The notes under the pieces: model-generated
Databases searched by the model: none
What the model was told of the DNA's origin: nothing
The model's input: the letters and a program-made list of their open reading frames with translations, nothing else
Shown: in pieces, positions 10,269 to 37,860 of the stretch
Layout: each line of letters begins with the position of its first letter
Position numbering within the stretch: position 1 is the stretch's first letter
Position numbers and translations under genes: made by a program
Source of the DNA: an uncultured Pseudomonadales bacterium
GTDB lineage: Bacteria; Patescibacteriota; Microgenomatia; UBA1400; PJMF01
Reading direction: 5' to 3'
DNA length: 64,000 bases
NCBI GenBank assembly: GCA_964637295.1
Contig: CAZWWE010000003.1
Span: forward strand, 37,565 to 101,564

Positions 10269-11339
10269 CTAAAAAAATTTCTTTTTGAGTCTTAAAAATT
10301 TCCAGCGCCAATTTTCTGCCAGAGTATAGATTTTGTACATGGGATAATCATGAATTAAATCGTAACTGCCAATAAATTCTACTAGTTCGCCGCCATAACC
10401 CTTTTTGAAACGGTGAAAGCCATTCCAAGGGCTTTTTGGATCCGGATCAGGTCCCAAAGAACCCCACATATCAAAACTTTTACAACCACTTCTTTTGCCA
10501 AAACGAATAATTTCCCACATCATCAGGTTGCTGGCCATGACTTCGCGATGCAAAGAGCTAGAAGCGCCATAGGGATAATATAAAACGCCGTTGAACACAA
10601 AAACTATCCAAACCACTAAGACCTTGTTTTCATAAATGGCTTTGAAAATATGAGCCATACCGCTATCTTTGAGGCTTTTCCAGAGTTGACGAAAATATGC
10701 TGGAGAATGAGCATAGAAACCTTGTCTTTGTGTGGTTTCTGCCAAAATTTTTAAATAATCTTCTAGACCACGCTCGCTACTGTCTTCAATAATTTTGACG
10801 CCTTTTTTTTCTGCTAGTCTGACGTTGTAGCGTGTTTTGCTGCTTTGCTTATTGAGGAGTTCTTCTTCACTGGCTTGCAGATCGAGTTCAAAAGTGTAGC
10901 GGGTAAAAAGGGCTCTGCCCTCTTCAACTTGATATTTTTCCATTAATTGCACATAAGGATTGGCGCTTGAATCTTGATCCAGGGGCTTTTTTACATTTGG
11001 TTCCATTTTGATGTAAATGGCATTATGTTTTTTGGCTAACTGTTGTAAGGCTGCCATTTGATCATCATCTGGAGGAAAACCTTTGGGAAAATAACCTACT
11101 ACGCGATTGAGCAATGGAATTTTGTGAAAAGTGACTTGTAAAGCTTGGCGCAATTCGCCTTCCACAAAAAATCCTAATCTTTCAACCACAACTCCAGTTT
11201 GCTTTCTAAATTCACCCCACTGGTGAGATTGCAGAGGATGATTGACCACTTGATTAAACAAAGTTTTTTCTTGTGGCAAAATTTCTCTGATCAACATAAG
11301 GTTTTTTCTATTATAGGCGAGTAAGATCACTTTTGCCAA
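10269..11339 (-). CDS. FemAB-family peptidoglycan interpeptide aminoacyltransferase
   Basis: The N-terminal region (...HPLQSHQWGEF...) and overall length are typical of the FemX/FemAB (Methicillin_resis) GNAT-like fold. Confidence 0.7.
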   Translation of the reverse strand: MAKVILLAYNRKNLMLIREILPQEKTLFNQVVNHPLQSHQWGEFRKQTGVVVERLGFFVEGELRQALQVTFHKIPLLNRVVGYFPKGFPPDDDQMAALQQLAKKHNAIYIKMEPNVKKPLDQDSSANPYVQLMEKYQVEEGRALFTRYTFELDLQASEEELLNKQSSKTRYNVRLAEKKGVKIIEDSSERGLEDYLKILAETTQRQGFYAHSPAYFRQLWKSLKDSGMAHIFKAIYENKVLVVWIVFVFNGVLYYPYGASSSLHREVMASNLMMWEIIRFGKRSGCKSFDMWGSLGPDPDPKSPWNGFHRFKKGYGGELVEFIGSYDLIHDYPMYKIYTLAENWRWKFLRLKKKFF

Positions 11340-11341
11340 CT

Positions 11342-13372
11342 TTATTTTTGGAGAAATTCTCTGATATCCAATTCATCGTTGAGTAAAGCTTCCAAACTGT
11401 CTTCATCAATGACCAGGCGCCTTGACTGATTAGGTTTTTTGTTTGTGGTTTTTTTATCTTGATAATAATATTTTTTTTGAGCAGCTGGTTCTTGATATTC
11501 AAAACTACGATTAAATTGCAGTAATTTTTGATCAATTTCACTTAAAAATCGGCTGGGAGAACAATGACTGCTGTAGCCGTAAGTGAAACGAGTCCTCGCA
11601 TAACTAAAATAAAGTTTTTTTTTGGCTCGAGTAATGCCCACATAACACAGACGGCGTTCTTCTTCAATTTCATTACTTTCCAAAATTGCTCGAGAATGAG
11701 GCAATAAACCTTCTTCCATGCCAACCATAAAAACAATGGGAAACTCCAAGCCTTTGACAGAGTGTAAACTCATCATGGTGATTTTATTCTCTAGTTCTTG
11801 CTCTACTTGTTCATTGGCCAAGTAACCATCTTGAACTAAAGCAATGTTTTCTAAAAGCAATAAGGTGTTGTCAAAACGACTGGCGACATTGAATAATTCT
11901 TGAATATTATCTAAGCGCGCCAAGTCATCGGGATCTTTTTGATCATATTTGTCCAAATAAAGAGTGTTTTCAATGATGCCTTGTAAGCAACTACTTGGAT
12001 TTTCTAAAATTTGTCGATCGGTTTTTTCTAGCCATAATAGTAATTTTTCTAGACGTCTTTTGCCAATTTTTTGCGCTCTTTCAAAACTTGGGCTATCGAG
12101 TCGATTAAAACACAGTCGTAAATAAGCTAGTAAATCTTTAATTTCGCTGCGCTCATAAAATTTGGTACCACCTACAATTTTGTAGGGTAATTGTTGGCGC
12201 ATAAAGGCTTCTTCAAAAGCGCGCGATTGAACATTGGTGCGATATAAAATAGCGATTTGATCGAGCTGATCTAAGTATTTTTCCCTGATAATCGAGGCGA
12301 TTTTTTCTGCTTCCAATTCTCCACTGCTATTTTCATAAACTTCTAATTTTTCTTGAGAAGTCTGGTCGGTCCATAATTCTAAAACAGGATGGGATTGATT
12401 GTTGGAAATCACTGAAGTGGCAGCATCCAAAATATTTTGCGTAGAACGATAATTTCTTTCTAGGCGATATTCTTGAATATTGGGAAAGTCGCGACTAAGT
12501 CTTTCTAGATTGCGATAATCTGCTCCTCGCCAAGCATAAATACTTTGTGAAAAATCACCGACCACAAACAAATTATTTTCAGGATTGCTAAAGATTTTAG
12601 TTAAAAAATATTGAACTTGATTAGTATCTTGAAACTCATCAACTAGCACGTGCTCAAATCTCTTTTGATATTTTTGCCTGACAGTTGCATTTTGAAGCAG
12701 TAGTTGATAGCAAATTGCTAGCAAATCATCAAAATCGACCGCGTTTTCATCGCGCAATCTTTTTTGGTAAATTTTGTAAACTTTGGCAGTAAAAAGCTGT
12801 AAACCGTCTTTAGCCATTTCTTTAAAATCAATGGGACTAACTAATTCATTTTTAGCCTGACTAATTTTGGCTCTGACTACCTGTGGCTTGAAAGTATTTG
12901 GATCAAAACCATTAGTTTTATAAATGTTTTTAATGAGACTGAGTTGGTCGTCGCTGTCATAAATAGTAAAATTAGCATTAAGACCAAAATCAGCTAAGTG
13001 GCCGTTGGCGGCTTCAATGCGGAGAATTTTGGCTGATAAACTATGGAAAGTGCCGCCATAAGTTAGATTTTTGCCAGTGTAATCTAAAACTCTTTTTTTC
13101 ATTTCGGCAGCCGCTTTATTGGTAAAAGTTACTAAGAAGATAGCGTTTTCTGCTACTTTTTTTTCTTTAATCAAATAGGCGACGCGAGTCGTCAGCACTC
13201 TGGTTTTACCACTGCCCGCTCCAGCCAAAACAATGGCCGGTCCTTCTTGATGAAGCACAGCTTTTCGTTGTTCTGGATTGAGTTCGTTGAGCAGATTAGC
13301 AATTTCTAGCACGATTGACATATTAGCATAGTTGTCAGTTATTTGTGCTAAATGTGCGGGGTCAACCCACAT
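11342..13372 (-). CDS. uvrD: ATP-dependent DNA helicase, UvrD/PcrA family
   Basis: AGAGSGKTRVLT (Walker A / motif I) with a DEFQD motif II equivalent and typical SF1 helicase spacing. Confidence 0.9.
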   Translation of the reverse strand: MWVDPAHLAQITDNYANMSIVLEIANLLNELNPEQRKAVLHQEGPAIVLAGAGSGKTRVLTTRVAYLIKEKKVAENAIFLVTFTNKAAAEMKKRVLDYTGKNLTYGGTFHSLSAKILRIEAANGHLADFGLNANFTIYDSDDQLSLIKNIYKTNGFDPNTFKPQVVRAKISQAKNELVSPIDFKEMAKDGLQLFTAKVYKIYQKRLRDENAVDFDDLLAICYQLLLQNATVRQKYQKRFEHVLVDEFQDTNQVQYFLTKIFSNPENNLFVVGDFSQSIYAWRGADYRNLERLSRDFPNIQEYRLERNYRSTQNILDAATSVISNNQSHPVLELWTDQTSQEKLEVYENSSGELEAEKIASIIREKYLDQLDQIAILYRTNVQSRAFEEAFMRQQLPYKIVGGTKFYERSEIKDLLAYLRLCFNRLDSPSFERAQKIGKRRLEKLLLWLEKTDRQILENPSSCLQGIIENTLYLDKYDQKDPDDLARLDNIQELFNVASRFDNTLLLLENIALVQDGYLANEQVEQELENKITMMSLHSVKGLEFPIVFMVGMEEGLLPHSRAILESNEIEEERRLCYVGITRAKKKLYFSYARTRFTYGYSSHCSPSRFLSEIDQKLLQFNRSFEYQEPAAQKKYYYQDKKTTNKKPNQSRRLVIDEDSLEALLNDELDIREFLQK

Positions 13373-24200: not shown

Positions 24201-25109
24201 TTCTGAGATAATTAGTTCATCACTGAACTTTACTTCTCTCCCGACTGGGCACACGGTTTTCCCGTACCCTAGCCGACGCTTGATTTTTTACTAAATTTAT
24301 TCATTTTTTTGCGAATGGCTCGCAATTGCTCAATGCCATCTAAAGTTAAATGCTGTTTACTCTTAAATATTTCTACGGCTTGTAGAAAATATTGATAAGA
24401 CAAACGTTTTTTAGCTCTAAGCGGATATTGATTAAAAAATGGAATTAATTTATCAATAATTTCCCTGATCGAAGACACTTTTAGTTCAACGTGTGGATGC
24501 CACCCATAACGCTCATAATTGAGAGTATAGATATGACCACAGCCGAGTGTTTTTTGAATTTGTTGCAAGATTTCTAAATCATCGCTTCGCAATTCGATTT
24601 GAAAATGCAAACGCGCATCCAGACCCAATTTCTTGGTAGGATGTTTAGAGATGACGATGGTGAAGCAGCCTTCTCCATCAACAAATCCTGCTATATATTC
24701 GCCAGGTAATTTTTTATCAAGTGAGTCCTTCCCTTTCTTATGAAAGGTACTATGACTCTTGCAGACTTCCTGATGAATGTTTGATTTCATCACTTCCATC
24801 ATACTCATTTCTCGTTATTAAACAAGAAGCGAGAGACATCAGGATCTCCCTTTGTACCCATAAAGACCTTTTGTTTTCATCTCGAGCCCAGATATTTTAA
24901 ATACTATACTTAAATAAGTAGTTTCCCCAAATGTACGAATGGGTCACCAATATTTAAAATCGTTTAAACTTCAAGCTGAAAACTGCTACTTTTACCCTTC
25001 ATCTAGCTCCTTGCGGAGATTAGACTGTAATTTGGCTTTACTTGGCTTATTTCCAAGTAGTTGGATTCACACCAACTTGTTTTTATAGGCGAAAGGCGCA
25101 TATTTACGT
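24201..25109 (-). mobile_element. Intron (probably group I) inserted in 16S rRNA near E. coli position ~1396/1397, carrying a homing endonuclease ORF
   Basis: 909 nt interrupt the otherwise colinear universal motif TTGTACA|CAC(C/T)GCCCGTCA. The insert encodes a single-motif LAGLIDADG protein in the rRNA sense orientation. Boundaries are placed by the exon consensus and are good to ±1 nt. Confidence 0.7.
24269..24808 (-). CDS. LAGLIDADG homing endonuclease (single-motif type) encoded inside the 16S intron
   Basis: LPGEYIAGFVDGEGCF matches the LAGLIDADG consensus (LAGFIDGDG). The 179-aa product is typical of homodimeric intron-encoded endonucleases. Confidence 0.8.
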   Translation of the reverse strand: MSMMEVMKSNIHQEVCKSHSTFHKKGKDSLDKKLPGEYIAGFVDGEGCFTIVISKHPTKKLGLDARLHFQIELRSDDLEILQQIQKTLGCGHIYTLNYERYGWHPHVELKVSSIREIIDKLIPFFNQYPLRAKKRLSYQYFLQAVEIFKSKQHLTLDGIEQLRAIRKKMNKFSKKSSVG

Positions 25110-26562
25110 TGTACAAGGAGCGAGAACGTATTCACCGCAACCTGCTGATTTGCGATTACTACCGATTCCGACTTCATGCTCTCGAATTGCAGAGAACAAT
25201 CTGAACTGAGGGGCCGTTTAAGGATTAGCTCCACCTCGCGGTCTTGCTTCCCGTTGTCGGCTCCATTGTAGGATGTGTGTAGCCCTGGATGTAAGGGTCG
25301 TGCTGACTTGACGTCATCCTCTCCTTCCTCCCTGCAAAAAGCAGGGCAGTCTCTCGTGACACTTGTAACACGAGATAAGGGTTGCGCTCGTTACCACACT
25401 TAAGTGGACGCCTCACGACACGAGCTGACGACAGCCATGCAACACCTGTGTACCACTCTCGAAGAAGACTTAGTTTCCTAAGCCGTGCAGGTACATGTCA
25501 AACCCAGGTAAGGTTTTTCGCTTTGTATCGAATTAAACCACATGCTCCACCGGTTGTGCGCTCCCCCGTCAATTCCTTTGAGTTTTAATCTTGCGATCGT
25601 AATCCCCAGGCGCCTTGCTTAACGCGTTAGCTTACATCACTCAATCCATAAAGGACCAAGCAATTAGCAAGGAATGTTTACGGCTTGGACTACAGGGGTC
25701 TCTAATCCCTTTTGCTACCCAAGCTTTCGTCCCTGAGCGTCAGTATTACCCTAGGAGCCCGCCTTCGCGAATGGTGTTCCTCTCGATATCTACGGATTTC
25801 ACCCCTCCACCGAGAATTCCAGCTCCCCATAGTAAACTCTAGTTTATCAGTTTTCCATCCTGTATCTGGAGTTGAGCCCCAGTATTAAAGATGAAACTTG
25901 ATAAACCGCCGACGGTACGCTTTACGCCCAGTAAATCCGGATAATGCTTGCACCCTACGTATTACCGAGGCTTCTGGCACGTAGTTAGCAGGTGCTTTCT
26001 AGCAGGGTACGCTCAAAATTTGTTCCCCTGCCACAGTGGTTTACACTCCGAAAAGCTTCTTCCCACACGCGGTGTCGCTGCGTCAGACTTTCGTCCATTG
26101 CGCAATATTCCCAGTTGCTGCCACCCGTAGGTGTAGGCACCGTGTCTCAGTTACCTTGTGGCCGGTCATGCTCTCACACCGGCTACCCGTCATTGGCTTG
26201 GTGAGCCGTTACCTCACCAACTACCTGATAGGGCGCAGGCCTCTCCCCAAGCGTCTTGCGACTTTGACCTTACGGCCATATGCGGCATTACCCCACCTTT
26301 CGATGAGCTATTCCCCACTTGAGGGTAAGTTCCTACGTATTACTCACCCGTCTGCCACTCGTTCTTGCGAACCGTTCGACTTGCATGCTTAAGGCACACC
26401 GCCAGCATTCATCCTGAGCCAGGATCAAACTCTTAAAAAAAAGTTTGATTAGCTCTATAAAAAACTAATTTGATTTACTTAAAAAATTGACGGACTTTTC
26501 CAAAAAAAGGAAAAATCCTTGCACACTTTCTATCACTATATTTATTTTCAATTGGCTGTTAC

Positions 26563-26728
26563 TAGACCTGTAAAGAAATACTAAAAAGGTTTCTTAACCT
26601 ATCTTTTACATATTTTAGTTCTTTTCTTCTTCCTCAAGTAGGCATAGCTACTATCGTCATCAGAAAAGATTAAAATATTGTAAAACCTAAGGTTAATAAA
26701 CTCAATTTATTATTTCTTTACAGGTCTA
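26563..26728. repeat. 18-bp perfect inverted repeat in the 16S leader (arms 26563-26580 and 26711-26728)
   Basis: tagacctgtaaagaaata ... tatttctttacaggtcta, giving a potential long-range stem that encloses ~130 nt of leader. Confidence 0.55.
26632..26658. repeat. 27-bp direct repeat, copy 1 (inside the 16S leader)
   Basis: cctcaagtaggcatagctactatcgtc, containing a hairpin AGTAG-n6-CTACT. It matches copy 2 at 25 of 27 positions. Confidence 0.5.
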
Positions 26729-26741
26729 CTTGTTAAAGATC
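26728..26741 (-). promoter_or_regulatory. boxA-like antitermination element in the 16S leader
   Basis: On the rRNA-sense strand, TGATCTTTAACAAG matches the rrn boxA consensus TGCTCTTTAACAA at 12 of 14 positions. It lies ~65 nt downstream of the predicted promoter. Confidence 0.5.
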
Positions 26742-26806
26742 AATTTGGCCTAGCAAACAAAAAAAAGAAAGAAAAACTTTCTAGTTTTTTGTACTTCCTC
26801 TAGACG

Positions 26807-26842
26807 CTGAAGAATTTTATTCCATGGAAGCCTATTTGACAA
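26807..26842 (-). promoter_or_regulatory. Candidate sigma70 promoter for the 16S rRNA operon
   Basis: On the minus strand, TTGTCA (26842..26837), a 17-nt spacer and TAAAAT (26819..26814). It sits ~375 nt upstream of the 16S 5' end. Confidence 0.4.
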
Positions 26843-26894
26843 GTCGCATTCTACTGCAAGTCTGTAGACTTCGGCAAAAAAATATTTATTTTAT

Positions 26895-26921
26895 CCTCAA
26901 GTAGACAAAGCTACTATCGTC
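26895..26921. repeat. 27-bp direct repeat, copy 2 (upstream of the rRNA promoter)
   Basis: cctcaagtagacaaagctactatcgtc. The hairpin stem is conserved while the loop differs from copy 1. Confidence 0.5.
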
Positions 26922-27054
26922 TAAAACTAAATCTTTTTTTGCTCGAACCTTCAGCCTTTCGTGACGAAAGGGACTTGTTAAATAGGCTTTAAGAACAAAA
27001 TTGTGAAGTGGGAGTTATTTTAAGGGCAAGTCTATGAAAAGACAATAGTCAATC

Positions 27055-27897
27055 GTGAGTGTTTACTCTATACTTTTTAGTATGAGTGCAATTAAGCAAG
27101 CGATTTTACTGACCATGAGCGTTCTGGCGGCTTATTTGTATCTGCAAGTGCCTTTTTTGAAAGAGTATTTTTTGCAAGCTTTTGCTTTGAGTAGTGCTGT
27201 TTATTTATTTTTACAAAAGCAGCAGAGGGGCTATTCTGCCTTATTTTTAGCCAATCATTCTGTATTAGGTTTGGCGATAATCAATTTTGCTTTTTTATTA
27301 TTGGTGGGTGCCAGTGGTTCTCTGGCCTCACCCTTTTTTGCCCTGACTTTTATTGAACTTTTCTTTGTTGCGTTGAGTACATCGGCAAAAAATACTTTGT
27401 TGTTGAGTTTAGAAATCATGGTTTTTCATTTTAGTCTGAGCATTGCCAATAGTAACCATTTTAGATTGGAAACAGCGCAATTATCTAATTTATTAGCTTT
27501 GCCAATTGTGAGCATTTTTTATTTATTTGCCAAAAACCAATATGAGAAAGCTTATCGCAATCACTTGTTGCTTGATTGGCAAAATCGAGAATTAGAGCGA
27601 GCGCAAAGCGATGATCAAGCCGTAGCAGAATTTGTCACCTCTTTACTTAATCGACGCTTGCCGATGCTAGAATTTTTACTGAGTTTTCCAGAAAAGAATC
27701 AGGCAGCTATTTTGGCAGAAATCCAAATTTTAAAGCAAGATTTAAACTTATTGATTAGACAAATTGAGAAAAAAACTGAAAGCTCAAATTCAGATCAATC
27801 GCTTATCTTGAAACAGGAAGAAGCCAAAACGCCAAATATGGAGGCTCTAATCGATCTAGTGGAAAAAGAAAGTCATGAAGAAAAGAAAAGCCCATGA
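27055..27897 (+). CDS. Membrane protein with a C-terminal coiled-coil (first gene of the surface-protein operon)
   Basis: GTG or ATG start, ~5 transmembrane helices, then a charged coiled-coil tail (QDLNLLIRQIEKKTES...). No enzymatic motif is visible. Confidence 0.5.
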   Translation: MSVYSILFSMSAIKQAILLTMSVLAAYLYLQVPFLKEYFLQAFALSSAVYLFLQKQQRGYSALFLANHSVLGLAIINFAFLLLVGASGSLASPFFALTFIELFFVALSTSAKNTLLLSLEIMVFHFSLSIANSNHFRLETAQLSNLLALPIVSIFYLFAKNQYEKAYRNHLLLDWQNRELERAQSDDQAVAEFVTSLLNRRLPMLEFLLSFPEKNQAAILAEIQILKQDLNLLIRQIEKKTESSNSDQSLILKQEEAKTPNMEALIDLVEKESHEEKKSP

Positions 27898-28721
27898 TCA
27901 AGGCAAAGGTGAAAACGACTAAGATTGCATCTTTAATAATAGGTTTCTTTCTATGGAGTGGTTTTGCTTTGCCAGCAAATAATCAAGTCATGGCTGAGGA
28001 AATGCAGTCTAATTCGTATAAGATTCAATTTGGCAATTTTAATATGGCTTCTGGTCAAAGAAGTGGTGAAACTTACGCTCTCTCAGATACTATGGGTGGC
28101 TTAGCTGTGGGGCCCTATGGACAATATGGTAGTAGCAGCTACTTTATTGGTGGTGGTTTTCAATATGTTTATCAAATTGATTATTTTTTCTTTAGCATTT
28201 CCAAATTAAGCATCAATTTGGGTGAATTATTTGCAGATAGTTTTAAAACTGACTCACACACAATCAGCGTGACCACTAATGGGGCCAGTGGCTACAAAGT
28301 GTATGTTTTTGAAAATCATCCGCTGCGCTTGATTGGAGCTAGTACCCCTAGCCCCAGCACTGATCTAAGTGACACCACTTGCGATGCTGGCTGTGATGAA
28401 AGCACCGCTGGACTGTGGACTAATGCAAGCAATGCTGGTTTTGGTTTCAACGTCAGTGCCAATGTTTTGCCTAATGCTAATTTGCCAGGCGGCACTTTTA
28501 ATTTGGGCGATGATGATGTGGCCGCTGATTTTATTAATCAGAATTATTTTCGTCAATTTGCGAATAACGAAGCTGGCGAAAGCATGCAGGCAATTATGAG
28601 TTCTGATAATGTTGCTTTGCAGAACACAGCCACTGTGACTTATAAGGCCGCTATGGCTGGCAATCAAACAGCCGGTTCTTATCAAACAAGCATTGTTTAT
28701 GTGGCCGTACCTGGCTATTAA
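27894..28721 (+). CDS. Exported protein, paralogue A1 (shares a ~110-aa C-terminal domain with A2)
   Basis: Signal peptide. The C-terminal block GLWTNASNAGFGFNVS...FRQFANNEAGE...SYQTSIVYVAVPGY aligns with A2's DWTNASTYPGFGYSLS...AKQFADLAAGE...NYENYIVYTASATF. Its start overlaps the upstream stop (ATGA). Confidence 0.55.
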   Translation: MIKAKVKTTKIASLIIGFFLWSGFALPANNQVMAEEMQSNSYKIQFGNFNMASGQRSGETYALSDTMGGLAVGPYGQYGSSSYFIGGGFQYVYQIDYFFFSISKLSINLGELFADSFKTDSHTISVTTNGASGYKVYVFENHPLRLIGASTPSPSTDLSDTTCDAGCDESTAGLWTNASNAGFGFNVSANVLPNANLPGGTFNLGDDDVAADFINQNYFRQFANNEAGESMQAIMSSDNVALQNTATVTYKAAMAGNQTAGSYQTSIVYVAVPGY

Positions 28722-28730
28722 GTTTAATTT

Positions 28731-29780
28731 ATGTCAATTAAAAAATATCTCTCATTTTCTTTGCTTATTAGTTTGTTGACTTTAGTTTTTTTAAGTAAAC
28801 CGACTTTGGCGGCTTCAGCTTTGGACTTAAAAATTTATCCACCAGTTGCCTATCTATCAGTTAAGCCTGGCGCAGGCATTAACCACCTAGTCAAGCTGAG
28901 CAATCAAGGCCTTTACACTTTAGAGATTGCTCCGACTTTGGTTAATTTTCAGACTGATGGCAAATCTGGAGCAGTTATTTTAGAGCAAAGTAGTGATTTT
29001 ACTTACCTTAATTTAGAAGCCGATCCGGCCAATTGGGGTAAATCTTTTATTCTTAAACCAGGAGAAGAAAAAAATCTTAATTTTGTTATTGCTCTTCCCA
29101 GCTTGGTGCCAGAAAAAGAGTTTCATTTATCAATTTTATTTCAAGCCAGACAAGTGGCACAAGGTAGCAGCCATCAACAACAAGCAATTCTGTCAGCGAT
29201 TGTGGCCAGCAATGTCGTTTTGGCAGTGAGTAATGAAGGGCAAAATCGCGGAGAATTGGTCATTGAACAATTTAATGTACCCAAGCTAGCCGACAGTTTG
29301 ATAGGTTTTAGTTTCAGCGCTTTGTTAAAAAACATTGGTTCGAATGCTACTCCTATTACTGGACAAATTAAAATTAGTCATTGGCCAGCCGCCCAAGCAG
29401 AAATATATCAGTTATATCCAGATATGGTTTTGGCTGGCAGTCAGCGCTTGGCTCGAACAATGAGCGAGACGGAGCTAAAAAGTTTAACGCAGCTCGAAGA
29501 AAGTAAGGCAGTTTTAGCTGCCAACGGTGAAGATTATGCAGCTCGCAAAGCTCAATTAATTAGAGAAAAATTAAAATCGCAAGTTTTTTATAAAAAAAGC
29601 TTTTTACTTGGTGCTTATGATTTAGAATTAGCTGTTGGCGAGCAAACATCGAGTAAAAGGGTGATAGTTTTGCCTTTTTCGCTATTGTTCATCGTTTTAA
29701 TTCTGCCGATTCTTTATACTCTATTTAGTCTGTTACAAAAATTGACGCAGAAAGTTATTTTAAAAAAACCCGATAATTAG
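28731..29780 (+). CDS. Exported protein with a C-terminal transmembrane anchor, paralogue B1 (DUF916-like architecture)
   Basis: Signal peptide, then a beta-rich domain (DLKIYPPVAYLSVKPGAGINHLVKLSNQGLYTLEI...), a coiled region, a C-terminal hydrophobic anchor and a basic tail (KKPDN). It is a paralogue of B2. Confidence 0.55.
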   Translation: MSIKKYLSFSLLISLLTLVFLSKPTLAASALDLKIYPPVAYLSVKPGAGINHLVKLSNQGLYTLEIAPTLVNFQTDGKSGAVILEQSSDFTYLNLEADPANWGKSFILKPGEEKNLNFVIALPSLVPEKEFHLSILFQARQVAQGSSHQQQAILSAIVASNVVLAVSNEGQNRGELVIEQFNVPKLADSLIGFSFSALLKNIGSNATPITGQIKISHWPAAQAEIYQLYPDMVLAGSQRLARTMSETELKSLTQLEESKAVLAANGEDYAARKAQLIREKLKSQVFYKKSFLLGAYDLELAVGEQTSSKRVIVLPFSLLFIVLILPILYTLFSLLQKLTQKVILKKPDN

Positions 29781-29832
29781 CAAATTAATAGTTGACGACC
29801 AGACTTAAACAGGTTTATGCTTAAGTAAACTT

Positions 29833-31275
29833 ATGAAATTCAAGCAATTATTGTTTTTATTCACCCTTGTTAGTTTAGTTTTTTTGGCAGCCAAGAAAAA
29901 TCTGGTTTTTTCTGGTGAATTCACCAATGTTTCTGCTACCTTGAATAATGCTCGCTTGTCTTTTCGTGGAGCTTTGGAAGGCACCCAAACTACAGGTTCA
30001 TCTTTGGTGACCATTGATACCGGCAATTACCCTTCCGAATCGGTTTTGCAATTACAAAATCGCGATACTTTGACCATTAATGATAGCACTTACACGGTGG
30101 CCACTACGATTGATGATGCTAGTGATAATACTTTTAACTTAACTGCTGGTTTAGATGCCAGTGATATTACTAACGATGCACCCATTTACGGCAATCAAAG
30201 ATCTAGTTTGACCGTGCGCCTAAAAACCATCAGTGCTTTAAGCGCTGGTTCATTTCGCATCTTAGTGCCAGCAATTAGTAACACTGGCACGGATCACGAT
30301 GGCATTCCAGATGCGGGTGGTTTCGATTTTGGCACTGGTACCACCGCCGCCATCACTTGTCCGACTCTAGCTGCCTATGGCACTTTTACTGCTGCAAGTA
30401 CTCCAGCCCAGAGTGCAAGTGTAGTAATTGATGGAGTTAATTATCATTCTTTTGTTTGTGAATATAGCGGCTTGGGAGAAGTAGGCACCGATTTTGATGG
30501 CACCGATGCTAATCCTTTTGTGATTAGCAACTTGATTAATCCGGCTCCGAAAACTGGCACTGACAATCATACTTTGGGTCAAGCAGATACCTATACAGTA
30601 ATTATTCAACATCGCGATGCTGCCGATACGGTGATTGATCAAACTTTAACCAAAATCGGTGTAGTTGATGCAGTCAAAGTTTCAGCGCAAATTTCACCAC
30701 AAATTACCTTTACCATTGCTGGTTTGCCAGCAGCCACCAGTGCTTGTGGAGTCAGTACTAATGTTGCTACCACCGCCCTGACCGTTCCTTTTGGAGAATT
30801 GACCATTGGTTCTTTTGTGAATGCAGCCCAGCGTTTAACAGTTACTACTAACGCGATTGGCGGCTATACCGTGACCGCTGCTGAGAATGATCAGCTTGGT
30901 CGTGAAGCCAACGCTTGTGCCACTGATGGTTCTGCGAGTATTACTTGTTTGGTCGATGCTAGCGTGACTGGCGCCAGCCACACTGCTGCTGCTGATTGGA
31001 CTAATGCCTCCACCTATCCAGGTTTTGGCTACAGTTTGTCTTCGGCAGTCGGTTCACCAACTTTAGTTTTTACTTACAATGAGTCCTCACGCACTTTTTC
31101 TGCTAAGCAATTTGCTGATTTAGCTGCTGGAGAGTTGGCGCAAACTATTTTTCAACGCTCGACGGTAACTGCGAGCGATGCCGTCAATGTTTGTTACAGA
31201 ATTGCTCCAGCAGCCACCAATGCCGCTGGAAATTATGAAAACTATATCGTATATACAGCTTCGGCTACATTTTAA
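29833..31275 (+). CDS. Exported Thr/Ala/Gly-rich surface protein, paralogue A2
   Basis: Signal peptide. The central region is low-complexity T/A/G/S-rich, which looks like beta-strands. The C-terminal domain is homologous to A1. Confidence 0.55.
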   Translation: MKFKQLLFLFTLVSLVFLAAKKNLVFSGEFTNVSATLNNARLSFRGALEGTQTTGSSLVTIDTGNYPSESVLQLQNRDTLTINDSTYTVATTIDDASDNTFNLTAGLDASDITNDAPIYGNQRSSLTVRLKTISALSAGSFRILVPAISNTGTDHDGIPDAGGFDFGTGTTAAITCPTLAAYGTFTAASTPAQSASVVIDGVNYHSFVCEYSGLGEVGTDFDGTDANPFVISNLINPAPKTGTDNHTLGQADTYTVIIQHRDAADTVIDQTLTKIGVVDAVKVSAQISPQITFTIAGLPAATSACGVSTNVATTALTVPFGELTIGSFVNAAQRLTVTTNAIGGYTVTAAENDQLGREANACATDGSASITCLVDASVTGASHTAAADWTNASTYPGFGYSLSSAVGSPTLVFTYNESSRTFSAKQFADLAAGELAQTIFQRSTVTASDAVNVCYRIAPAATNAAGNYENYIVYTASATF

Positions 31276-31285
31276 GGCTTAAACT

Positions 31286-32299
31286 ATGCGCAAAAACTGC
31301 CCTGTTTTTAAAATTTTTCATAAACTTAGCTTAACAATCTTGGCTTTGTTTTGTTTTTTGCAAAGCTATGGTATGGCTTTAGCTGCCACTGATTTATCTT
31401 TGACCGCTACCCCAGTGAGATTGGGAGATGATTACAGCATCAAATTGAAACCAGGTGAAAAAAAGCAAGTGCAGGTCAAAGTACGCAACGGTTCTACTGA
31501 TACTTTGGAAATTGAAAGCAAAGCATTGGATTTTGTGGTCGCAGAAGACGGCTTTTCTCCTCTTTTTGTGGACGCTAAAGAAGCTGATCCGCGTTGGAGT
31601 TTGGCTTCGTGGCTGACTTTAGTGCCCAATGAGCATAAGTTAGCCAATGAAGAAGTGGGCACAGTTAACGTTTTAATCGAAGTGCCAAAAAATGCTTTGC
31701 CAGGCGGACACTACGCGATGGTTTATCATCGTCCTCTAGCCTCGACAGCTTTAACTGAGTCTGGATCTGGTATTGCTCAGCGCGTTGGGACTCTACTATA
31801 TGTCGTAGTCGATGGTCCAATCAATGAAGAAGCTTATATTAGCAAGTTTCATTGGCCCAAATTTCTCGAAAATGGTCCGGTTAATTTTTCCTTACAAATC
31901 GATAACCAATCTGATGTCCATATTAGTCCACAGCCTATTTTAAAAATTTATAATTTATTTGGTAAAGAAGTAGCCAAGATTGATCTTGAAGCGAGAAACA
32001 TTTTCCCCAAAACACAACGCGAATTTAGTGGCACTTGGAATAAAATTTGGGGACTAGGTTATTATAAGGCTATAGTTGAGGCTAGCTACGGTAGTGAGGG
32101 TCGCATGTTAAGCGCGGCAGCTGGTTTATATTTAGTGCCAGTCAAATTAATTCTCTTGATTTTAATCATTATTTTGTTAGGTATTATTTTGACTTTAACG
32201 ATCAAAAAACGTCGCCAGCATCAAGACACTGCTGCTAAATCTGATCTTGATTTAGAAACTCAGCATGAAGAAACTGATGATGGAGCAGCAAAAAATTAA
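31286..32299 (+). CDS. Exported protein with a C-terminal transmembrane anchor, paralogue B2 (DUF916-like architecture)
   Basis: Signal peptide, then DLSLTATPVRLGDDYSIKLKPGEKKQVQVKVRNGSTDTLEIE... and ...HYAMVYHRP. It has a C-terminal transmembrane segment and a KKRRQHQ stop-transfer followed by an acidic tail. Confidence 0.55.
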   Translation: MRKNCPVFKIFHKLSLTILALFCFLQSYGMALAATDLSLTATPVRLGDDYSIKLKPGEKKQVQVKVRNGSTDTLEIESKALDFVVAEDGFSPLFVDAKEADPRWSLASWLTLVPNEHKLANEEVGTVNVLIEVPKNALPGGHYAMVYHRPLASTALTESGSGIAQRVGTLLYVVVDGPINEEAYISKFHWPKFLENGPVNFSLQIDNQSDVHISPQPILKIYNLFGKEVAKIDLEARNIFPKTQREFSGTWNKIWGLGYYKAIVEASYGSEGRMLSAAAGLYLVPVKLILLILIIILLGIILTLTIKKRRQHQDTAAKSDLDLETQHEETDDGAAKN

Positions 32300-34295
32300 A
32301 CCCTTTTTAGCTTGGGTTTTGGGCTTACTAGCTTTTTTATCGCTATCTGTCTGCGCCCGAGCACAAGACGTGAGCGTTAGTGCCTTAGTCCCGGATAGTC
32401 AACCCCCGACAGTGCCAATTTTAATTTCTCCAGAGGACGGAGCCATTATTAGTGATAACACACCAGCTTTTAAGTGGTATGCATCTAGCGATAACAATGG
32501 TTTATCTCATTATGCTTTATATTTAAACAATAATTTACTCTATGACCAAATTCCTTTAAGTGCGGTAGAAAATAGCAATTACAAATTAGAATTTGACCAT
32601 CTGAATGGTTTTTATACGTTGACCGTTAAAAAAAGTTTAAGCGACCGCACTTATCAGTGGAAAATAGTAGCTGTTGATTATGCAAACTTGAAAGCCAGCT
32701 CAGATATTTGGGATTTTACCATTGACACTTTAGCGCCCAATTTTACTTTGAGCCAAATTGGTGATACCGCAGTCCGTATCTCAGCCAGCGAAGTTGGCTC
32801 AGTTCCTACTGAGCCAATATTGATCTTTAAAAATGACGCTACTGCCAACGAACCCATTCTTAAGGCCAGCGGCGAAGCTTATAGTCAGGTCAAATTAACT
32901 GTGACCATTCCCAATGATTTAACTCAAGTTTTTAATACTCAAATTGATAAAAATGGAGTTTACGAAATTAAACTAGGCATTTTGCCTCGAGATGTTGATA
33001 TTAGATTGGATTTTATTATTACTGATCGCGTCAATCATGTGAGTGTTTTGGAAAAAGTATATTTTCGTATTGCCCTACAATATTGGCCAACAGCCGCCTC
33101 TCCCACTCAGGGATCGCCCACTCCGGACTTTAGCGTGACTCCTTCAGTTAGCTTGTCTATCAAGCCTTCTATTAGCGCCAGCCCTAGTTCTTCTTTGAGT
33201 CCAACACCAAGTTTGTCAGTTACTCCAAGCTTGCAACCTAGCGGTTTTGTCCCAATTTTGCCACCCAAAGAAATGGTTCATGAGTTGAGCGATGAATTAA
33301 TTGAATTTTTACCAAGTGACGCTGCCTGGCAAGTGAAAAATTTTTTGCGTTCTCAAGCTTGGCTAAATTTAGCCCCTAATCTATTTTTATTGTTTTTTGT
33401 ATTTGCTTACTTTTTGGCCTTTGTTGGTTTGCTAAGCAAATTTTGGCATTTTTTATCTTGGAAATTATGCCGCAAACTAGTCTTATTAATGTTGCCATTT
33501 TTACCAAAAGCTAAAAAAAATTTAGTTTTTGAATACAGTCAAACTACGGCTAGTCCGTTAAGCATAGTGAGCTTACTTGACGATCGGGGGCAGGAAGTGG
33601 ATTTTACCTTGACCAACTTGCAAGGCAATTTTGATGATTTTAAGCTTTTGCCGAAGCAATGGAGCTTGCGGGTTAAAGATCCTAATTTTTATTTTCCTAT
33701 CGGTGAAACTAAGCCTGAGCAATTAGCTTTTTGGCAATTCTATCAAGGACAAATTTTTGATCAACAGAATTATTGCGGCCAAGCCATTCTTCTGCCTACC
33801 CTGCGTGCTGCTGGTCAAAAGCACCTGCCTTTTTGGGAGAACTGTCGCATTTTGATTTTGTATTTATTGGAATATCCGTGGTGGTTTTTAAGTACATTAT
33901 TGGTTTTGAATTTGCTTTTTACCCTGCGCTATCCAAGTTTGGCAAATTATTTGATTTTGGGTTTTTATATTTTAGTGGCCATGAGTAAAATTGTGACCCT
34001 CAAAAAGTTTGCTAAAAAACTGTCAATTACCCTGACTATTGATGCGCAAACTAATTTTAATGACAATTTAATTGTTTCTTTGAGTCAAGCCAATTACCAA
34101 TCTGCCCAATCTGTGGTTTTGCCTTTTAACTTTGCCAAATCTAAAGAAATTAAACACTCATTAACACAAGGTCAAATTGTAGTTTTTGCCAAAAATCTGG
34201 CTTTAGTGCATGAACAAAAAATTGTTGCCATGCAACAATTTGTCTGCAATCAAGCGCAGACTTCGCTGCCTCTTATTTTAAAAAAAGTTAAATAA
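32265..34295 (+). CDS. Large exported and membrane-embedded protein (Ig/Fn3-like N-domains, Ser/Pro linker, polytopic membrane domain, C-terminal domain)
   Basis: Signal peptide. SPTQGSPTPDFSVTPSVSLSIKPSISASPSSSLSPTPSLSVTPSLQPSG is a low-complexity linker, followed by ~6 transmembrane helices. This is the last gene of the operon. Confidence 0.5.
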   Translation: MKKLMMEQQKIKPFLAWVLGLLAFLSLSVCARAQDVSVSALVPDSQPPTVPILISPEDGAIISDNTPAFKWYASSDNNGLSHYALYLNNNLLYDQIPLSAVENSNYKLEFDHLNGFYTLTVKKSLSDRTYQWKIVAVDYANLKASSDIWDFTIDTLAPNFTLSQIGDTAVRISASEVGSVPTEPILIFKNDATANEPILKASGEAYSQVKLTVTIPNDLTQVFNTQIDKNGVYEIKLGILPRDVDIRLDFIITDRVNHVSVLEKVYFRIALQYWPTAASPTQGSPTPDFSVTPSVSLSIKPSISASPSSSLSPTPSLSVTPSLQPSGFVPILPPKEMVHELSDELIEFLPSDAAWQVKNFLRSQAWLNLAPNLFLLFFVFAYFLAFVGLLSKFWHFLSWKLCRKLVLLMLPFLPKAKKNLVFEYSQTTASPLSIVSLLDDRGQEVDFTLTNLQGNFDDFKLLPKQWSLRVKDPNFYFPIGETKPEQLAFWQFYQGQIFDQQNYCGQAILLPTLRAAGQKHLPFWENCRILILYLLEYPWWFLSTLLVLNLLFTLRYPSLANYLILGFYILVAMSKIVTLKKFAKKLSITLTIDAQTNFNDNLIVSLSQANYQSAQSVVLPFNFAKSKEIKHSLTQGQIVVFAKNLALVHEQKIVAMQQFVCNQAQTSLPLILKKVK

Positions 34296-34334: not shown

Positions 34335-35615
34335 ATGTCTAACTCCGTTTTGCAACAGCTGCATTTTTTGATGGTGGGTTTTAATGCCAAAAAAATTCAA
34401 GTTGAATCAGCTCAGCAACTTGGTCTTAAAGTCAGCTTACTAATTTCTCGAGCCAAATATGAACCAGCATTCGAAGCAATGTTTCAGCAGGTTGTAGTGG
34501 TGGATGACATCTATAACTGGCCGCTAGTTGAAAAAGCTCTTCACCAATTTACAAAAATTGATGTGGTTTTGACTAGATCTGAAGACCATATTAATGTAGT
34601 GGGAGCGATCAACCAGCATTTACATTTGGCAGGCATAGATTATCAAACTGCGCGTAATTTTTGCAATAAATACTTGATGAAAGAAAAATGGCTAGCCGCA
34701 GGTGTGCCCTGCGCTCGAGGCATCTGTTTAGATGACCATCAAGATCTTGATTTATTTTTGCAGCAGCATCAATTTCCTTTGATGTTGAAAAAAACTTCCG
34801 CAGCTCATTCAAATTTCGTCATACGAGTGACTTCTCTGGCAGATTTATTGGATAAATGGCAATATTTAAAAAACAATGTTCAAGACGAAGTGGTTTCTAA
34901 AACTATGGCTGGTTTCAAGCAAACAAAACGGGCTTGCCAATTTGTTTTAGAAGAGACGCTGTCTGGTCGCGAATTAACGGTGGATACTTTTGTGCTTAAT
35001 GATCGTTATTTACACACGCCGATTTGCGAGTACGTCATGGCTGATGAGCTAAATGTTGAAGATACTTATTTGCCAATTAGGACGATGCCGATTGTTTTAA
35101 CTCAGGCACAAAGCGATTTGGTTTATCAAGTGGTGGAAAAAGCCTTGAGAGCTTTGGGAGCCAAAAATTGTGTGTGTCACACTGAGGTTTTTTTTGATGA
35201 ACAGAAAAATTATTGTGCAGTCATCGAAACTACAGCCAGAGGTGGTGGTAATCGCGCAGAGATGACTCTGGCAACTACTGGCTTTGATTACAGTTTAGCC
35301 GTTTTTCAAGTTGCTGCTGGCCTTGAGCCCCCATCAATACCCGCCCCACAAAGGGCCATTTCCGTAGTCGAATATTTTGCCAAGCAAAAAGGTTATTTCC
35401 AAGATTTGAACCTAGATTTTTTAAGCCAAAATCCTGCGGTGACCAATATTCAACTCAAATATAAACCTGGTCAATTAGTTGAAAAAGCTAAGTTTGGGGG
35501 AAAACCCATTATTAGTTTTTTTGTCAAGAAAAATACAGCCTTAGAAAGTCAAGCTTTGGCCAAAGAATTATTTAAAAAAATTCAAACTACAATAAAAATC
35601 GATTATCTTGAATGA
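34335..35615 (+). CDS. ATP-grasp family ligase (carboxylate-amine ligase-like)
   Basis: Pre-ATP-grasp domain followed by an ATP-grasp fold (PLMLKKTSAAHSNFVIRV...; ...CHTEVFFDE...IETTARGGG). Confidence 0.6.
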   Translation: MSNSVLQQLHFLMVGFNAKKIQVESAQQLGLKVSLLISRAKYEPAFEAMFQQVVVVDDIYNWPLVEKALHQFTKIDVVLTRSEDHINVVGAINQHLHLAGIDYQTARNFCNKYLMKEKWLAAGVPCARGICLDDHQDLDLFLQQHQFPLMLKKTSAAHSNFVIRVTSLADLLDKWQYLKNNVQDEVVSKTMAGFKQTKRACQFVLEETLSGRELTVDTFVLNDRYLHTPICEYVMADELNVEDTYLPIRTMPIVLTQAQSDLVYQVVEKALRALGAKNCVCHTEVFFDEQKNYCAVIETTARGGGNRAEMTLATTGFDYSLAVFQVAAGLEPPSIPAPQRAISVVEYFAKQKGYFQDLNLDFLSQNPAVTNIQLKYKPGQLVEKAKFGGKPIISFFVKKNTALESQALAKELFKKIQTTIKIDYLE

Positions 35616-36576
35616 TTTTTCGTACTTTACTTTTGTATAAATCAGGATCGGCAGTAAAAATTTTGGGTAAAAGAATTGGCTGGACAATGGCCAGCTTTTC
35701 AACTTTTTTGATATCTTGAACGGCAATTTTACCAAAGTAAAGTTTACTCGGATCAGCATCATTTTTTTGTAAATATTTTAAAATCTCGATAAAGCCTTCA
35801 AAGTAAACTAAATCTTTGCTAAAAGCTCCTTTTTGGCTAGTATCGGTCAAGCCTCTCTTTTTCTTCACCGTCCACCCCCAAGCCTTATTGGGATCTAGCC
35901 AAGCTCGCCAAAGAAAATTGAAAGTGCTCTGAAAATCTTTTCGCCAAGCCACATCATTGGCCAAATAATTGATGGCGCTTTTATAAGCGATACTTTGTTC
36001 TTTGGCGATCATCTCGTGAATAATGGCTAGTCCTTCTTCAGTACGCAGATGATTGTTTAAACCATAGCTTTTCTTTTTTTTATACCAGATTTGCTGTTCA
36101 TAATTATGTTGTCGCAATAAATGAGTATCTATTTCATGTGCCAAGATCCCGAGCATCTCTTCTTGAGTAATTTTGATCGGTAGAGCAATTTTAATTTCCC
36201 TATTTTTTAAATGAACGGCGCAGCGACTGACAAAGTTTGTTGAGAAGATGAGTCTATATTTATTTTCTAAGCCATATTGTTGCAAATGTTTGTCAAAGTA
36301 AGCACTTACCTCCTGCTGACTCAAATATCGAGTAGTGTTTTGAGTTTGTCTAATTTGTTTTTGCCAAGCTGCCTGATATTTTTTAAAAATATAATAAGCC
36401 TTGATTAAATAAGTCAAGCGAGGCTTGCCGTAGGCTAAAAGCTCATTTTTTGCAATTGGTCGCTGATAAACAAATTGTGGATTATATTTGTAATTGGCGG
36501 CAAAAAACTTAGCTTTTTCACTGGCTAAATTAAGAGGCACGAGTTCACTCAGTTTTAACATATGCTTGTCATTCAT
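35587..36576 (-). CDS. DUF1704 (QEGLA-motif) zincin-like metallopeptidase / carboxypeptidase
   Basis: HEIDTH is an HExxH motif and RTEEGLAIIHEM is a QEGLA-like motif, both hallmarks of DUF1704. Confidence 0.6.
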   Translation of the reverse strand: MNDKHMLKLSELVPLNLASEKAKFFAANYKYNPQFVYQRPIAKNELLAYGKPRLTYLIKAYYIFKKYQAAWQKQIRQTQNTTRYLSQQEVSAYFDKHLQQYGLENKYRLIFSTNFVSRCAVHLKNREIKIALPIKITQEEMLGILAHEIDTHLLRQHNYEQQIWYKKKKSYGLNNHLRTEEGLAIIHEMIAKEQSIAYKSAINYLANDVAWRKDFQSTFNFLWRAWLDPNKAWGWTVKKKRGLTDTSQKGAFSKDLVYFEGFIEILKYLQKNDADPSKLYFGKIAVQDIKKVEKLAIVQPILLPKIFTADPDLYKSKVRKIIQDNRFLL

Positions 36577-37855
36577 CGAAACGAATGATGAAGTTTTTTA
36601 AGTCTTTGCGGCCAATTTCAATTTTATTTGTTTTGCTATTGAGTTTATTACTCACAATCATGGTGGTTTTAACCAACTGCTCTTTCATTTTAAATTTCAC
36701 CTCCACAACTGGGACTTTACCTTCTTCTTTTTCTGCCTGAAACCACAGCAAATCGTCCACATCAATCAAACCTAATTCTTGAGCCAATTGTTTGGCGATG
36801 GCACTACTAAAGCGACCGGTATTTAAAAAAGCCACGGTTTCCAATTTGCGTTTTTGCTCTCCCCAAATCAACACAGTTTCGTGTAAATTCACAATAGGAA
36901 ATTCAGCCTTATTTTTAATTTTAGAGGCAAAGTCGCTGGCAAATAAAGCTTGGGCGACTTTCACTCCGTGTTTTGGGTTTTGAATATTGAGATCCTCGAC
37001 TCGCTCTAGTCGGCGACGCAAGCCAGCGCGATTAGCAGCTTGGATTGATAGGCCCGGAGCAGCATTGAGCTCCACCACCATTGGGCCCTTGTCTTTATGG
37101 ATAAATAAATCAACCCCAGCAAAATTTAATTCAGCGGCATTACTGGCAGCCACTGCAGTTTCTAAGATGCGGTTCCATTCAGGAATGAGAATGCCGTTGA
37201 GTTTCTTCTTGGTACCAGGCAAATAGTTGATGGGTTCACTTTTGTGTGCCACTGCGTAAGTAGTGATCCCACTAGCAATATCAATCCCAACCGCCAATGC
37301 TCCTTGAGTCACATTGGCTCGACCACCCGATTCTTCAGTGGGTAAACGCAACATTGCCATGACCGGCACGCTATTAAAAACTACCACGCGGATATCAGGT
37401 GTGCCTTTATAAGAATATTTTAATAATTTGGGATGAATTGGCACTCTTTCTTCAATAATGACATTGTGATTGAGACCATGAATGCTGTATTGTCCAGATA
37501 AAATATCATCACAATGCAGTTTAATATCTGCTAAACTCCATTTGTTGCCTAGCATGTCTTGCCAAGTATCGGGATCAATTTTTTCCCGAAAAGCCACTAC
37601 TCCAGTGCCAGCGTAGCCATTGGTGGGTTTGATCACAAAATTTTTTTCCAAACTTTGCCAGTTAAAATCCATGATGTCTTCATTAGTGGCTAAAACACCA
37701 TAGATTTCTGCGGTGGCAATTTGATAATCTTTGAGTAAAATTTTGGTGGCGTATTTAGAGTGAACGATGGCCTTGGCTTTATTTGAACTACGACTCAAGT
37801 ACAAAGAATTACGTGCATTAATTCCCAAAAGATCTTTGGCTTTGCTCACAAACAT
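36569..37855 (-). CDS. RimK-related ATP-grasp ligase (alpha-L-glutamate-ligase-like) with a C-terminal extension
   Basis: N-terminal LGINARNSLYL resembles the RimK-like N-domain. The ATP-grasp core reads FVIKPTNGYAGTGV...VVELNAAPG, and a ~130-aa C-terminal extra domain follows. Confidence 0.6.
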   Translation of the reverse strand: MFVSKAKDLLGINARNSLYLSRSSNKAKAIVHSKYATKILLKDYQIATAEIYGVLATNEDIMDFNWQSLEKNFVIKPTNGYAGTGVVAFREKIDPDTWQDMLGNKWSLADIKLHCDDILSGQYSIHGLNHNVIIEERVPIHPKLLKYSYKGTPDIRVVVFNSVPVMAMLRLPTEESGGRANVTQGALAVGIDIASGITTYAVAHKSEPINYLPGTKKKLNGILIPEWNRILETAVAASNAAELNFAGVDLFIHKDKGPMVVELNAAPGLSIQAANRAGLRRRLERVEDLNIQNPKHGVKVAQALFASDFASKIKNKAEFPIVNLHETVLIWGEQKRKLETVAFLNTGRFSSAIAKQLAQELGLIDVDDLLWFQAEKEEGKVPVVEVKFKMKEQLVKTTMIVSNKLNSKTNKIEIGRKDLKNFIIRFDE

Positions 37856-37860
37856 ATGCC

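Follow-up and report, generated by a model that had tools for sequence, protein, structure and literature searches.

A large part of bacterial diversity belongs to the Candidate Phyla Radiation (CPR), or Patescibacteria, whose members are mostly found attached to other cells by means that are largely unexplained. The locus described here raises the question of what six tightly packed genes for exported and membrane-bound proteins build in such a cell. It occupies positions 27055-34295 of a window of 64 kb (the whole stretch of DNA that was analysed, from contig CAZWWE010000003.1), where all six open reading frames (ORFs) delimited in an earlier note on this DNA are present, co-directional on the + strand and in the order M0-A1-B1-A2-B2-L. 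The earlier note saw in them a cell-surface complex of the Firmicute WxL/Csc type and closed by guessing at a pilus-like assembly that would suit an episymbiotic life. The closing guess was right in spirit. The operon is likely to encode the CPR Pam pilus in a divergent form of Microgenomatia type, a filament formed by donor-strand exchange with neither usher nor ATPase. The genes are as follows.

27055-27897, + strand: M0, 280 aa (gene callers favour a start at 27082, giving 271 aa)
27894-28721, + strand: A1, 275 aa
28731-29780, + strand: B1, 349 aa
29833-31275, + strand: A2, 480 aa
31286-32299, + strand: B2, 337 aa
32265-34295, + strand: L, 676 aa (the public gene call starts at 32277)

Spacing within the operon is tight, with a 4-nt overlap between M0 and A1, two gaps of 9-10 nt and one of 52 nt. 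A scan for the A2 family, taking one genome per species, yielded 77 related loci. When the six proteins were mapped by BLASTP to every ORF there, the M0-A1-B1-A2-B2-L order proved to be kept in 50 of the 77, including loci in which A2 shows 35-45% identity. The remaining 27 are mostly broken by contig ends and none has a different gene order; the six-gene arrangement is far beyond chance. The flanking genes are common to close relatives only, and on a distant contig of 1.4 Mb the six-gene cassette has other neighbours, lying between LeuRS/ComEC and a giant ORF. Thus, the module is a self-contained unit, and it moves as a cassette between neighbourhoods.

The A proteins and the Pam pilins

A1 and A2 are related to each other by direct comparison (34% identity over 177 aa, BLASTP E 4e-14) and by comparison of their family profiles (hhalign 99.4%, E 9.2e-22). 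Because of the extent of this alignment and the family profiles, the shared C-terminal domain is placed at about 170 aa; the homology had been recognised from the sequence at the outset, with a length of about 110 aa that proves too short. Signal peptides had likewise been read into five consecutive genes, and this reading holds. More specifically, a hydropathy scan finds N-terminal hydrophobic segments in B1, A2, B2 and L, while the signal peptide of A1, which lies below the threshold of the scan, was recognised by eye in its sequence and in the family alignment. The parts of the two A proteins are listed below.

27996-28199, + strand: A1 N-terminal segment, 65 aa, strongly conserved (family alignment)
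28200-28718, + strand: A1 Pam-type C-terminal domain (NF058581/NF058579 matches)
29914-30666, + strand: A2 N-terminal beta-sandwich domain (AlphaFold2 model)
30667-30732, + strand: A2 linker, putative donor strand (AlphaFold2 model, conservation)
30733-31272, + strand: A2 Pam-type C-terminal domain, proposed acceptor (AlphaFold2 model)

The AlphaFold2 (AF2) model of A2 has a pLDDT (predicted local distance difference test) of 89.6 and comprises strands and two short helices at residues 31-278, a strand at 291-297 and a beta domain running to residue 480. Six Cys are invariant in A2. Among its most conserved 9-mers are YENYIVYTA, which is the C-terminal strand, VVDAVKVSA in the linker, and two where the C-terminal domain begins, VTTNAIGGY and TTALTVPFG. 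A1 has two invariant Cys in its family alignment and a conserved strand-like segment, FSFSIS, directly before its C-terminal domain.

A fold search with the A2 model (Foldseek against the PDB) returns generic beta-sandwich matches only, with CfaB of CFA/I (probability 0.99), SafA, TasA and the TasA-like TLP-1b among many immunoglobulin (Ig) folds. Pfam holds no family for A1 or A2, and sequence searches of the PDB with A1, A2 and the profiles of the A1 and B2 families gave nothing relevant. The only specific family matches for the A proteins are to NCBIfam hidden Markov models (HMMs) of the Pam pilus. A1 matches NF058581 (CPR_Pam_pilin_C, 'Pam pilus system pilin subunit') with 35.4 bits (E 1e-8; cut-off 55 bits) and NF058579 ('CPR-type pilus protein PamT') with 28.7 bits (E 8e-7; cut-off 240), the latter over profile positions 12-241 of 241. 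NF058581 is matched by 31/31 members of the A1 family and by 13/30 of the A2 family, all below the cut-off, and 18 of the 31 A1-family members match NF058579 over its full length (best E 1.5e-10). Judged by these profile scores, the similarity to the Pam models is significant and remote, and does not amount to curated membership.

Both models derive from a preprint in which two filaments of Ca. Mycosynbacter amalyticus (Saccharimonadia) were solved by electron cryomicroscopy (cryo-EM) (Troman et al., bioRxiv 10.64898/2026.03.03.709456). The pilins PamA and PamB consist of a beta-sandwich N-terminal domain, one linker strand and a truncated Ig-like C-terminal domain, the linker being donated to the next subunit; they carry 2-3 Cys pairs, and the linker and the C-terminal strand are among the most conserved parts of Pam pilins (Troman et al.). 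PamC and PamD are chaperones of the PapD type that carry a transmembrane (TM) helix at the C-terminus, PamT forms the tip and has one domain only, and PamR is an RbmA-like membrane anchor with two fibronectin type III (FnIII) domains, an N-terminal strand and one C-terminal TM helix (Troman et al.). Distant PamA homologues in Microgenomatia have been reported, through a language-model search only (Troman et al.).

The operon agrees with this description at several points. A2 has the layout of a Sec-exported two-domain pilin, with a beta-sandwich N-terminal domain, a linker strand, an Ig-like C-terminal domain and paired Cys, and A1 resembles PamT as a subunit with a single C-domain. The combination of signal peptide, two Ig domains and C-terminal TM helix in B1 and B2 is the PamC/PamD signature. 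Usher, ATPase and sortase are absent, all genes stand in one operon, and the system is CPR-restricted as far as can be judged from the informative titles of related loci. It differs in that the operon holds two pilin genes only, with no equivalents of PamB or PamE seen there. The best identification of A1 is a PamT-like exported minor pilin and that of A2 a PamA-like exported major pilin. Thus, the cluster matches a known pilus system, which speaks against the WxL/DUF916-type complex first suggested for it.

The B proteins and the WxL/Csc complexes

The two B proteins had been described as paralogues with a C-terminal anchor followed by basic residues, and the description stands. Their pairwise similarity is weak (26% identity, E 0.004), while the two family profiles align over 281 columns (hhalign 99.6%, E 1.7e-24), and on this profile evidence B1 and B2 are judged to be full-length paralogues. 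Each has a C-terminal TM helix (residues 311-329 in B1 and 288-306 in B2) with basic residues after it. The AF2 model of B2 (pLDDT 85.7) comprises a signal peptide, a first Ig domain (residues 39-150), a low-confidence loop (151-166), a second Ig domain (183-283) and a long TM helix, and the segments flanking the low-confidence loop are the most conserved of the protein. The corresponding positions in the window are these.

29661-29717, + strand: B1 C-terminal TM helix (hydropathy scan; the protein also has a signal peptide and two Ig-like domains)
31400-31735, + strand: B2 domain 1, DUF916-like (AF2 model, PF06030)
31736-31783, + strand: B2 low-confidence hairpin loop, putative complementing strand (AF2 model)
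31832-32134, + strand: B2 domain 2 (AF2 model)
32147-32203, + strand: B2 TM helix (hydropathy scan)

An insertion of about 35 aa in the second domain of B1 (residues ~246-283, window 29466-29579) is poorly conserved and helical by sequence prediction; it is missing from B2 and from WxLIP, the anchored protein of WxL clusters, and recalls the difference between PamC and PamD in the Pam preprint.

That the B proteins would be DUF916-like is a part of the WxL proposal that is supported. B2 itself scores 25.1 bits against PF06030 (DUF916), just below the cut-off of 27.3, and 27 of 31 B2-family members match this model at E<=0.01; several database homologues also bear PF06030 or the name 'DUF916 domain-containing protein'. 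The B1 family (n=31) has no PF06030 HMM match, though it aligns to WxLIP by profile. PF11797 (DUF3324), the second domain of WxLIP, has no HMM match among the 31 B2-family and 31 B1-family members. In a Foldseek search of the PDB with the B2 model, the top three matches are the Enterococcus faecium WxLIP chains 9i1y_A/B and 9i25_C (E 2e-12 to 2e-11, TM-score 0.55-0.60), entry 9i25 being WxLIP bound to a long WxL protein, and the next are RbmA and the chaperone-usher chaperones CfaA, YadV, CsuC, Caf1M and FimC (E 1e-10 to 1e-7, the chaperones at 1e-9 to 1e-7).

Profile comparison points the same way. Genuine Firmicute-type WxL clusters, 29 in number, were taken from metagenomes by means of the published WxLIP motif NQIDKxxxYFDLK and confirmed by Pfam (PF06030 with PF11797, and PF13731). 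With signal peptides and TM helices removed, and with column-block permutations as controls, the Firmicute WxLIP profile aligns with the B2 family at hhalign 94.9% (E 4e-8, 216 columns) and with the B1 family at 86.9% (E 4e-6, ~217 columns). The scores, 59.8 for B2 and 47.4 for B1, each lie about 14 standard deviations above those of the permuted profiles (17.1 +/- 3.0 and 16.0 +/- 2.2, respectively). Both the hhalign alignments and the superposition of 9i1y/9i25 on the B2 model extend over the two domains, and the WxLIP HMM matches B2 and 23 B2-like ORFs in CPR loci. Aligned with the low-confidence B2 loop is the hairpin of WxLIP, from which AF2 predicts a strand that fills a gap in the WxL beta-sandwich. 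Taken together, profiles and models identify the B proteins as true WxLIP/DUF916 relatives, and the best identification of B1 and B2 in functional terms is that of PapD-like chaperones with a C-terminal membrane helix.

The A proteins tell differently on the WxL proposal, in which their C-terminal domain had been likened to the WxL domain (PF13731). PF13731 has no match at E<=1 in A1, in A2 or in the 31 A1-family members that were scanned, and the WxL HMM matches no ORF in the 77 CPR loci; conversely, the WxL proteins do not match the NCBIfam Pam models. Comparison of the A C-domain with verified WxL domains, as whole proteins and as trimmed domains, gives hhalign values below 1% that are no better than reversed or block-permuted controls, with one of five comparisons marginal (1/60 permutations). 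The dual W-x-L motif is not found in the A C-domain, which has Y-x-V and Y-x-A at the motif positions, and there is no WxL chain among the best fold matches listed for A. The candidate assignment of the A C-terminal domain to WxL is not supported by the HMM, the controlled profile comparison or the motif check, and the operon does not belong to the WxL family as defined by PF13731.

Three short colinear motifs of A1 (28149-28718) and A2 (30772-31272) do recall WxL domains: VPFGEL beside FGxQKI, VTTNAxxGYxVxAxEN beside VTDNRGTxAGWxLxVKQN with Tyr in place of the WxL Trp, and AGNYENYIVYTA beside VGDYQGTLSWQLVSAP. When hhalign scores are set against controls this likeness does not reach significance, and it serves as a lead only. 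In the retrieved WxL clusters (L080-L107), the N-terminal ~60 aa of the small WxL proteins match NCBIfam NF053819, the EF0750/EF2685 LPXTG surface-protein family (18/26, best E 1e-7); from these matches it appears that the WxL proteins share an N-terminal segment with the sortase-anchored protein of the cluster. Such a shared segment is what the donor strand of a wall-anchored terminator would resemble.

Proposed assembly and competing readings

Of the two proteins encoded at the ends of the module, M0 had been described as a multi-TM protein with a coiled-coil tail and L as having Ser/Pro linkers and a polytopic membrane region, and both descriptions are borne out. M0, the first gene of the module and upstream of A1 in most related loci, encodes about five TM segments by the hydropathy scan and a C-terminal amphipathic-helix/coiled-coil tail with a hydrophobic periodicity of 3.6 residues. 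It has no Pfam or NCBIfam family and may possibly be an assembly platform or a regulator. L is the last gene of the module in every case. Its product starts with a signal peptide and a strand-like segment that is conserved at the N-terminus, and also has Ig-like domains, a Pro/Ser linker and another three TM segments; Big_13 is present in 27/27 and CarboxypepD_reg in 21/27 members of its family. By analogy with PamR, L is a probable membrane anchor or terminator. Its mapped features are two.

32382-33104, + strand: L Big_13 Ig-like domains (family HMM matches)
33381-33437 and 33849-33995, + strand: L TM helices (hydropathy scan)

In the mechanism proposed here, Sec would export all structural proteins, and A1 and A2 would fold with an incomplete Ig-like C-terminal domain. 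B1 and B2, tethered to the cytoplasmic membrane by the C-terminal helix, would transiently complete this pilin domain, the chaperone strand being supplied by the conserved hairpin that follows the first B domain. Because of the gene order, B1 would pair with A1 and B2 with A2. Polymerisation would occur as the chaperone strand is displaced by the conserved linker of the A2 subunit that follows, giving a linear fibre tipped by A1 and with a shaft of (A2)n. L may terminate and anchor this fibre by means of the strand-like segment conserved at its N-terminus, together with its Ig domains and TM helices. Folding would supply the energy, as for chaperone-usher pili. The fibre probably contacts a host cell or a surface, the function proposed for Pam pili (10.64898/2026.03.03.709456).

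Donor-strand complementation by a two-Ig-domain chaperone followed by exchange, as proposed here, is also the principle of the chaperone-usher pili of Gram-negative bacteria (Pap/Fim, CFA/I class 5, archaic Csu), to whose chaperones CfaA, YadV, CsuC, Caf1M and FimC the B2 model is structurally similar and to whose subunits CfaB and SafA that of A2 is weakly similar. The differences are considerable. CPR bacteria have no outer membrane; the module has no usher-like gene and its chaperones are membrane-anchored. The pilins have two domains, the donor strand of A2 would be an internal linker and not an N-terminal extension, and no homology to chaperone-usher systems was detected at the sequence level. 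Sec-exported beta-sandwich subunits, strand complementation and the lack of an ATPase are also shared with strand-complemented fibres of monoderms and archaea, built with or without chaperones (TasA/TapA, archaeal threads and bundling pili), and the two TasA-type proteins among the fold matches of A2 fit this likeness.

Several points weigh against a Pam-type pilus. Every Pam HMM score lies under the NCBI cut-off (35 against 55 bits, 29 against 240), and A2 itself has no match to NF058581 at E<=1, being linked to it through A1 and the family members. The likeness to the M. amalyticus proteins was drawn from NCBIfam models and published descriptions, and strand exchange and an open groove in A2 are put forward by analogy. 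L, with 676 aa, a polytopic membrane region, Big_13 and CarboxypepD_reg, differs from the smaller, RbmA-like, single-pass PamR; the operon includes an extra polytopic protein, M0, for which no Pam counterpart was found described; and the ATP-synthase neighbourhood emphasised for Pam is absent from the window. Finally, A1 retains the conserved 65-aa N-terminal segment and the strand-like FSFSIS motif, and for this reason may not be a pure tip subunit.

This last point leads to the alternative that survives best, in which the fibre is of the same Pam type and some of its parts play other roles, A1 being an adaptor or second shaft subunit with FSFSIS as its donor strand and L an assembly platform analogous to an usher. 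The high conservation of the A1 N-terminus, the position of its strand-like segment just upstream of the C-domain, the polytopic nature of L and its several beta-sandwich domains would all suit such roles. However, 18 of the 31 A1-family members align over their full length to the model of the PamT tip subunit, and an usher-like beta-barrel is not expected in a monoderm; this division of roles is considered rather unlikely.

A second alternative retains the complex envisaged in the earlier note, with the B proteins as permanent anchors that hold single A1 and A2 adhesins and with no polymerisation. The minimal WxL cluster of Lactobacillales and Bacillales consists of a small WxL protein, a large WxL protein and a WxLIP (DUF916-DUF3324-TM), and the published description of WxL proteins is of adhesins bound to peptidoglycan, not of fibres (PMC9772566, PMC10599100). 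The architecture claimed for the locus is upheld in so far as HMM, profile and structure show the B proteins to be homologous to WxLIP, which they match in length (~340 aa), in their two Ig domains and TM helix and in the position of a hairpin loop, and as a small and a large secreted protein with a common C-terminal domain accompany an anchored partner, which is the layout of that minimal cluster. No filament is reported for WxL clusters in the literature searched, and 9i25 is a complex of WxLIP with WxL. The A domains match Pam pilin models and have neither a significant PF13731 match nor the two W-x-L motifs; the operon has no PF11797 HMM match, LPXTG protein or sortase, and its host belongs to the CPR and not to the Firmicutes. 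Pam proteins form the M. amalyticus filaments by cryo-EM, the conserved linker and C-terminal strands of A2 fit polymerisation, and the two B paralogues fit chaperones. A non-filamentous complex of this kind is therefore judged improbable.

A third alternative, which takes A2 for an adhesin with an Ig fold, either S-layer-like or stand-alone, and the remaining genes for those of unrelated envelope proteins co-transcribed by chance, is very hard to reconcile with the strict six-gene synteny over deep divergence and differing neighbourhoods, the paired paralogues, the specific Pam HMM matches and the chaperone-fold B proteins.

If the operon encodes a Pam-type pilus, its new element is the homology of the anchored Pam-type chaperones to WxLIP, which is solid by profile and model comparison. 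The Pam preprint does not mention this link, nor does the WxL literature searched, and no paper tying WxL to donor-strand assembly was found in that literature. WxLIP (DUF916) occurs in enterococci, lactobacilli and Listeria, and the link suggests a common principle of usher-less, ATP-independent assembly in monoderm envelopes. A bolder proposal, tentative and with the balance tilted against it, is that Pam pili and the Firmicute WxL/Csc complexes are two branches of one ancient monoderm 'anchored-chaperone' system, in which PamC/PamD-type chaperones would correspond to WxLIP and the pilin C-domain to a WxL domain that has diverged very far. Were this true, donor-strand complementation would be the way in which WxL clusters assemble, possibly as fibres, and there would be a testable mechanism for a family of Gram-positive surface and virulence proteins that has long gone unexplained.

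Spread of the module and its surroundings

In an HMMER scan of 1.84 billion representative sequences (50% clustering), A2 has 1276 relatives at E<=1e-3, of which 229 reach E<=1e-30. The compact six-gene version of Pam is conserved as a mobile cassette among Pacebacteria- and Microgenomates-like lineages, with about 1,300 pilin clusters at 50% identity. Every copy of the module that was seen is annotated as 'hypothetical', and current curated models miss these genes. Taxonomy was read from record titles, of which the informative ones name Pacebacteria, Microgenomates, Woesebacteria and Patescibacteria; many titles of bulk metagenome-assembled genomes are implausible. Among the CAZ*/CAY* records, many titles do not suit CPR-like sequence, for example 'uncultured Pseudomonadales', and the title 'candidate division TM6 ... 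GWF2_28_16' of L004 (CP011212.1) looks wrong for a locus with a GC content of 36%.

Some genomes hold a second copy of the operon (locus pairs L026/L027, L041/L051, L044/L059, L058/L062 and L068/L071), and at L044 and L058 an orphan A2-like pilin gene lies beside Lon and a PEGA-domain gene. These second copies and orphan genes suggest pilin diversification.

In the window, the upstream flank of the operon holds Lon and the downstream flank a cluster of ATP-grasp, MATCAP and 7TM-transglutaminase genes. The cluster looks like a peptide-ligase/modification system (34335-38880) and adjoins the pilus operon in close relatives only. The elements next to the operon are as follows.

26441-27054, no strand: intergenic stretch between the 16S rRNA gene and M0 (bounded by the 16S coordinates)
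34335-35615, + strand: ATP-grasp_4, first of the four-gene cluster directly downstream of the operon
35587-36576, - strand: MATCAP/DUF1704, downstream four-gene cluster
36569-37855, - strand: ATPgrasp_ST, downstream four-gene cluster
37861-38880, - strand: 7TM_transglut, downstream four-gene cluster

A motif-level scan for sortase, LPXTG, prepilin, PilB and ATP-synthase motifs found none in any ORF of the window. A FemAB-family gene lies at 10269-11339 on the - strand, as had been stated before (PF02388, E 6e-31), and adjoins a UvrD-type helicase at 11342-13372.

The promoter of the operon is presumably located in the intergenic stretch 26441-27054, although a promoter and terminator scan gave non-specific promoter-like matches only and is uninformative in this AT-rich DNA. 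On the far side of this stretch lies the 16S rRNA gene (25092-26440, - strand), and the operon is divergent from it, in agreement with the first description of the locus. The 16S match covers 1349 nt only, against 1533 positions of the full model, and there is no 23S rRNA gene within the 64-kb window. Directly 3' of the 16S rRNA gene is an ORF for a LAGLIDADG_1 homing endonuclease (24269-24808, - strand; E 3e-27), and a weak Rfam match to group-II-intron D1-D4 is found beside the same gene at 24725-24804.

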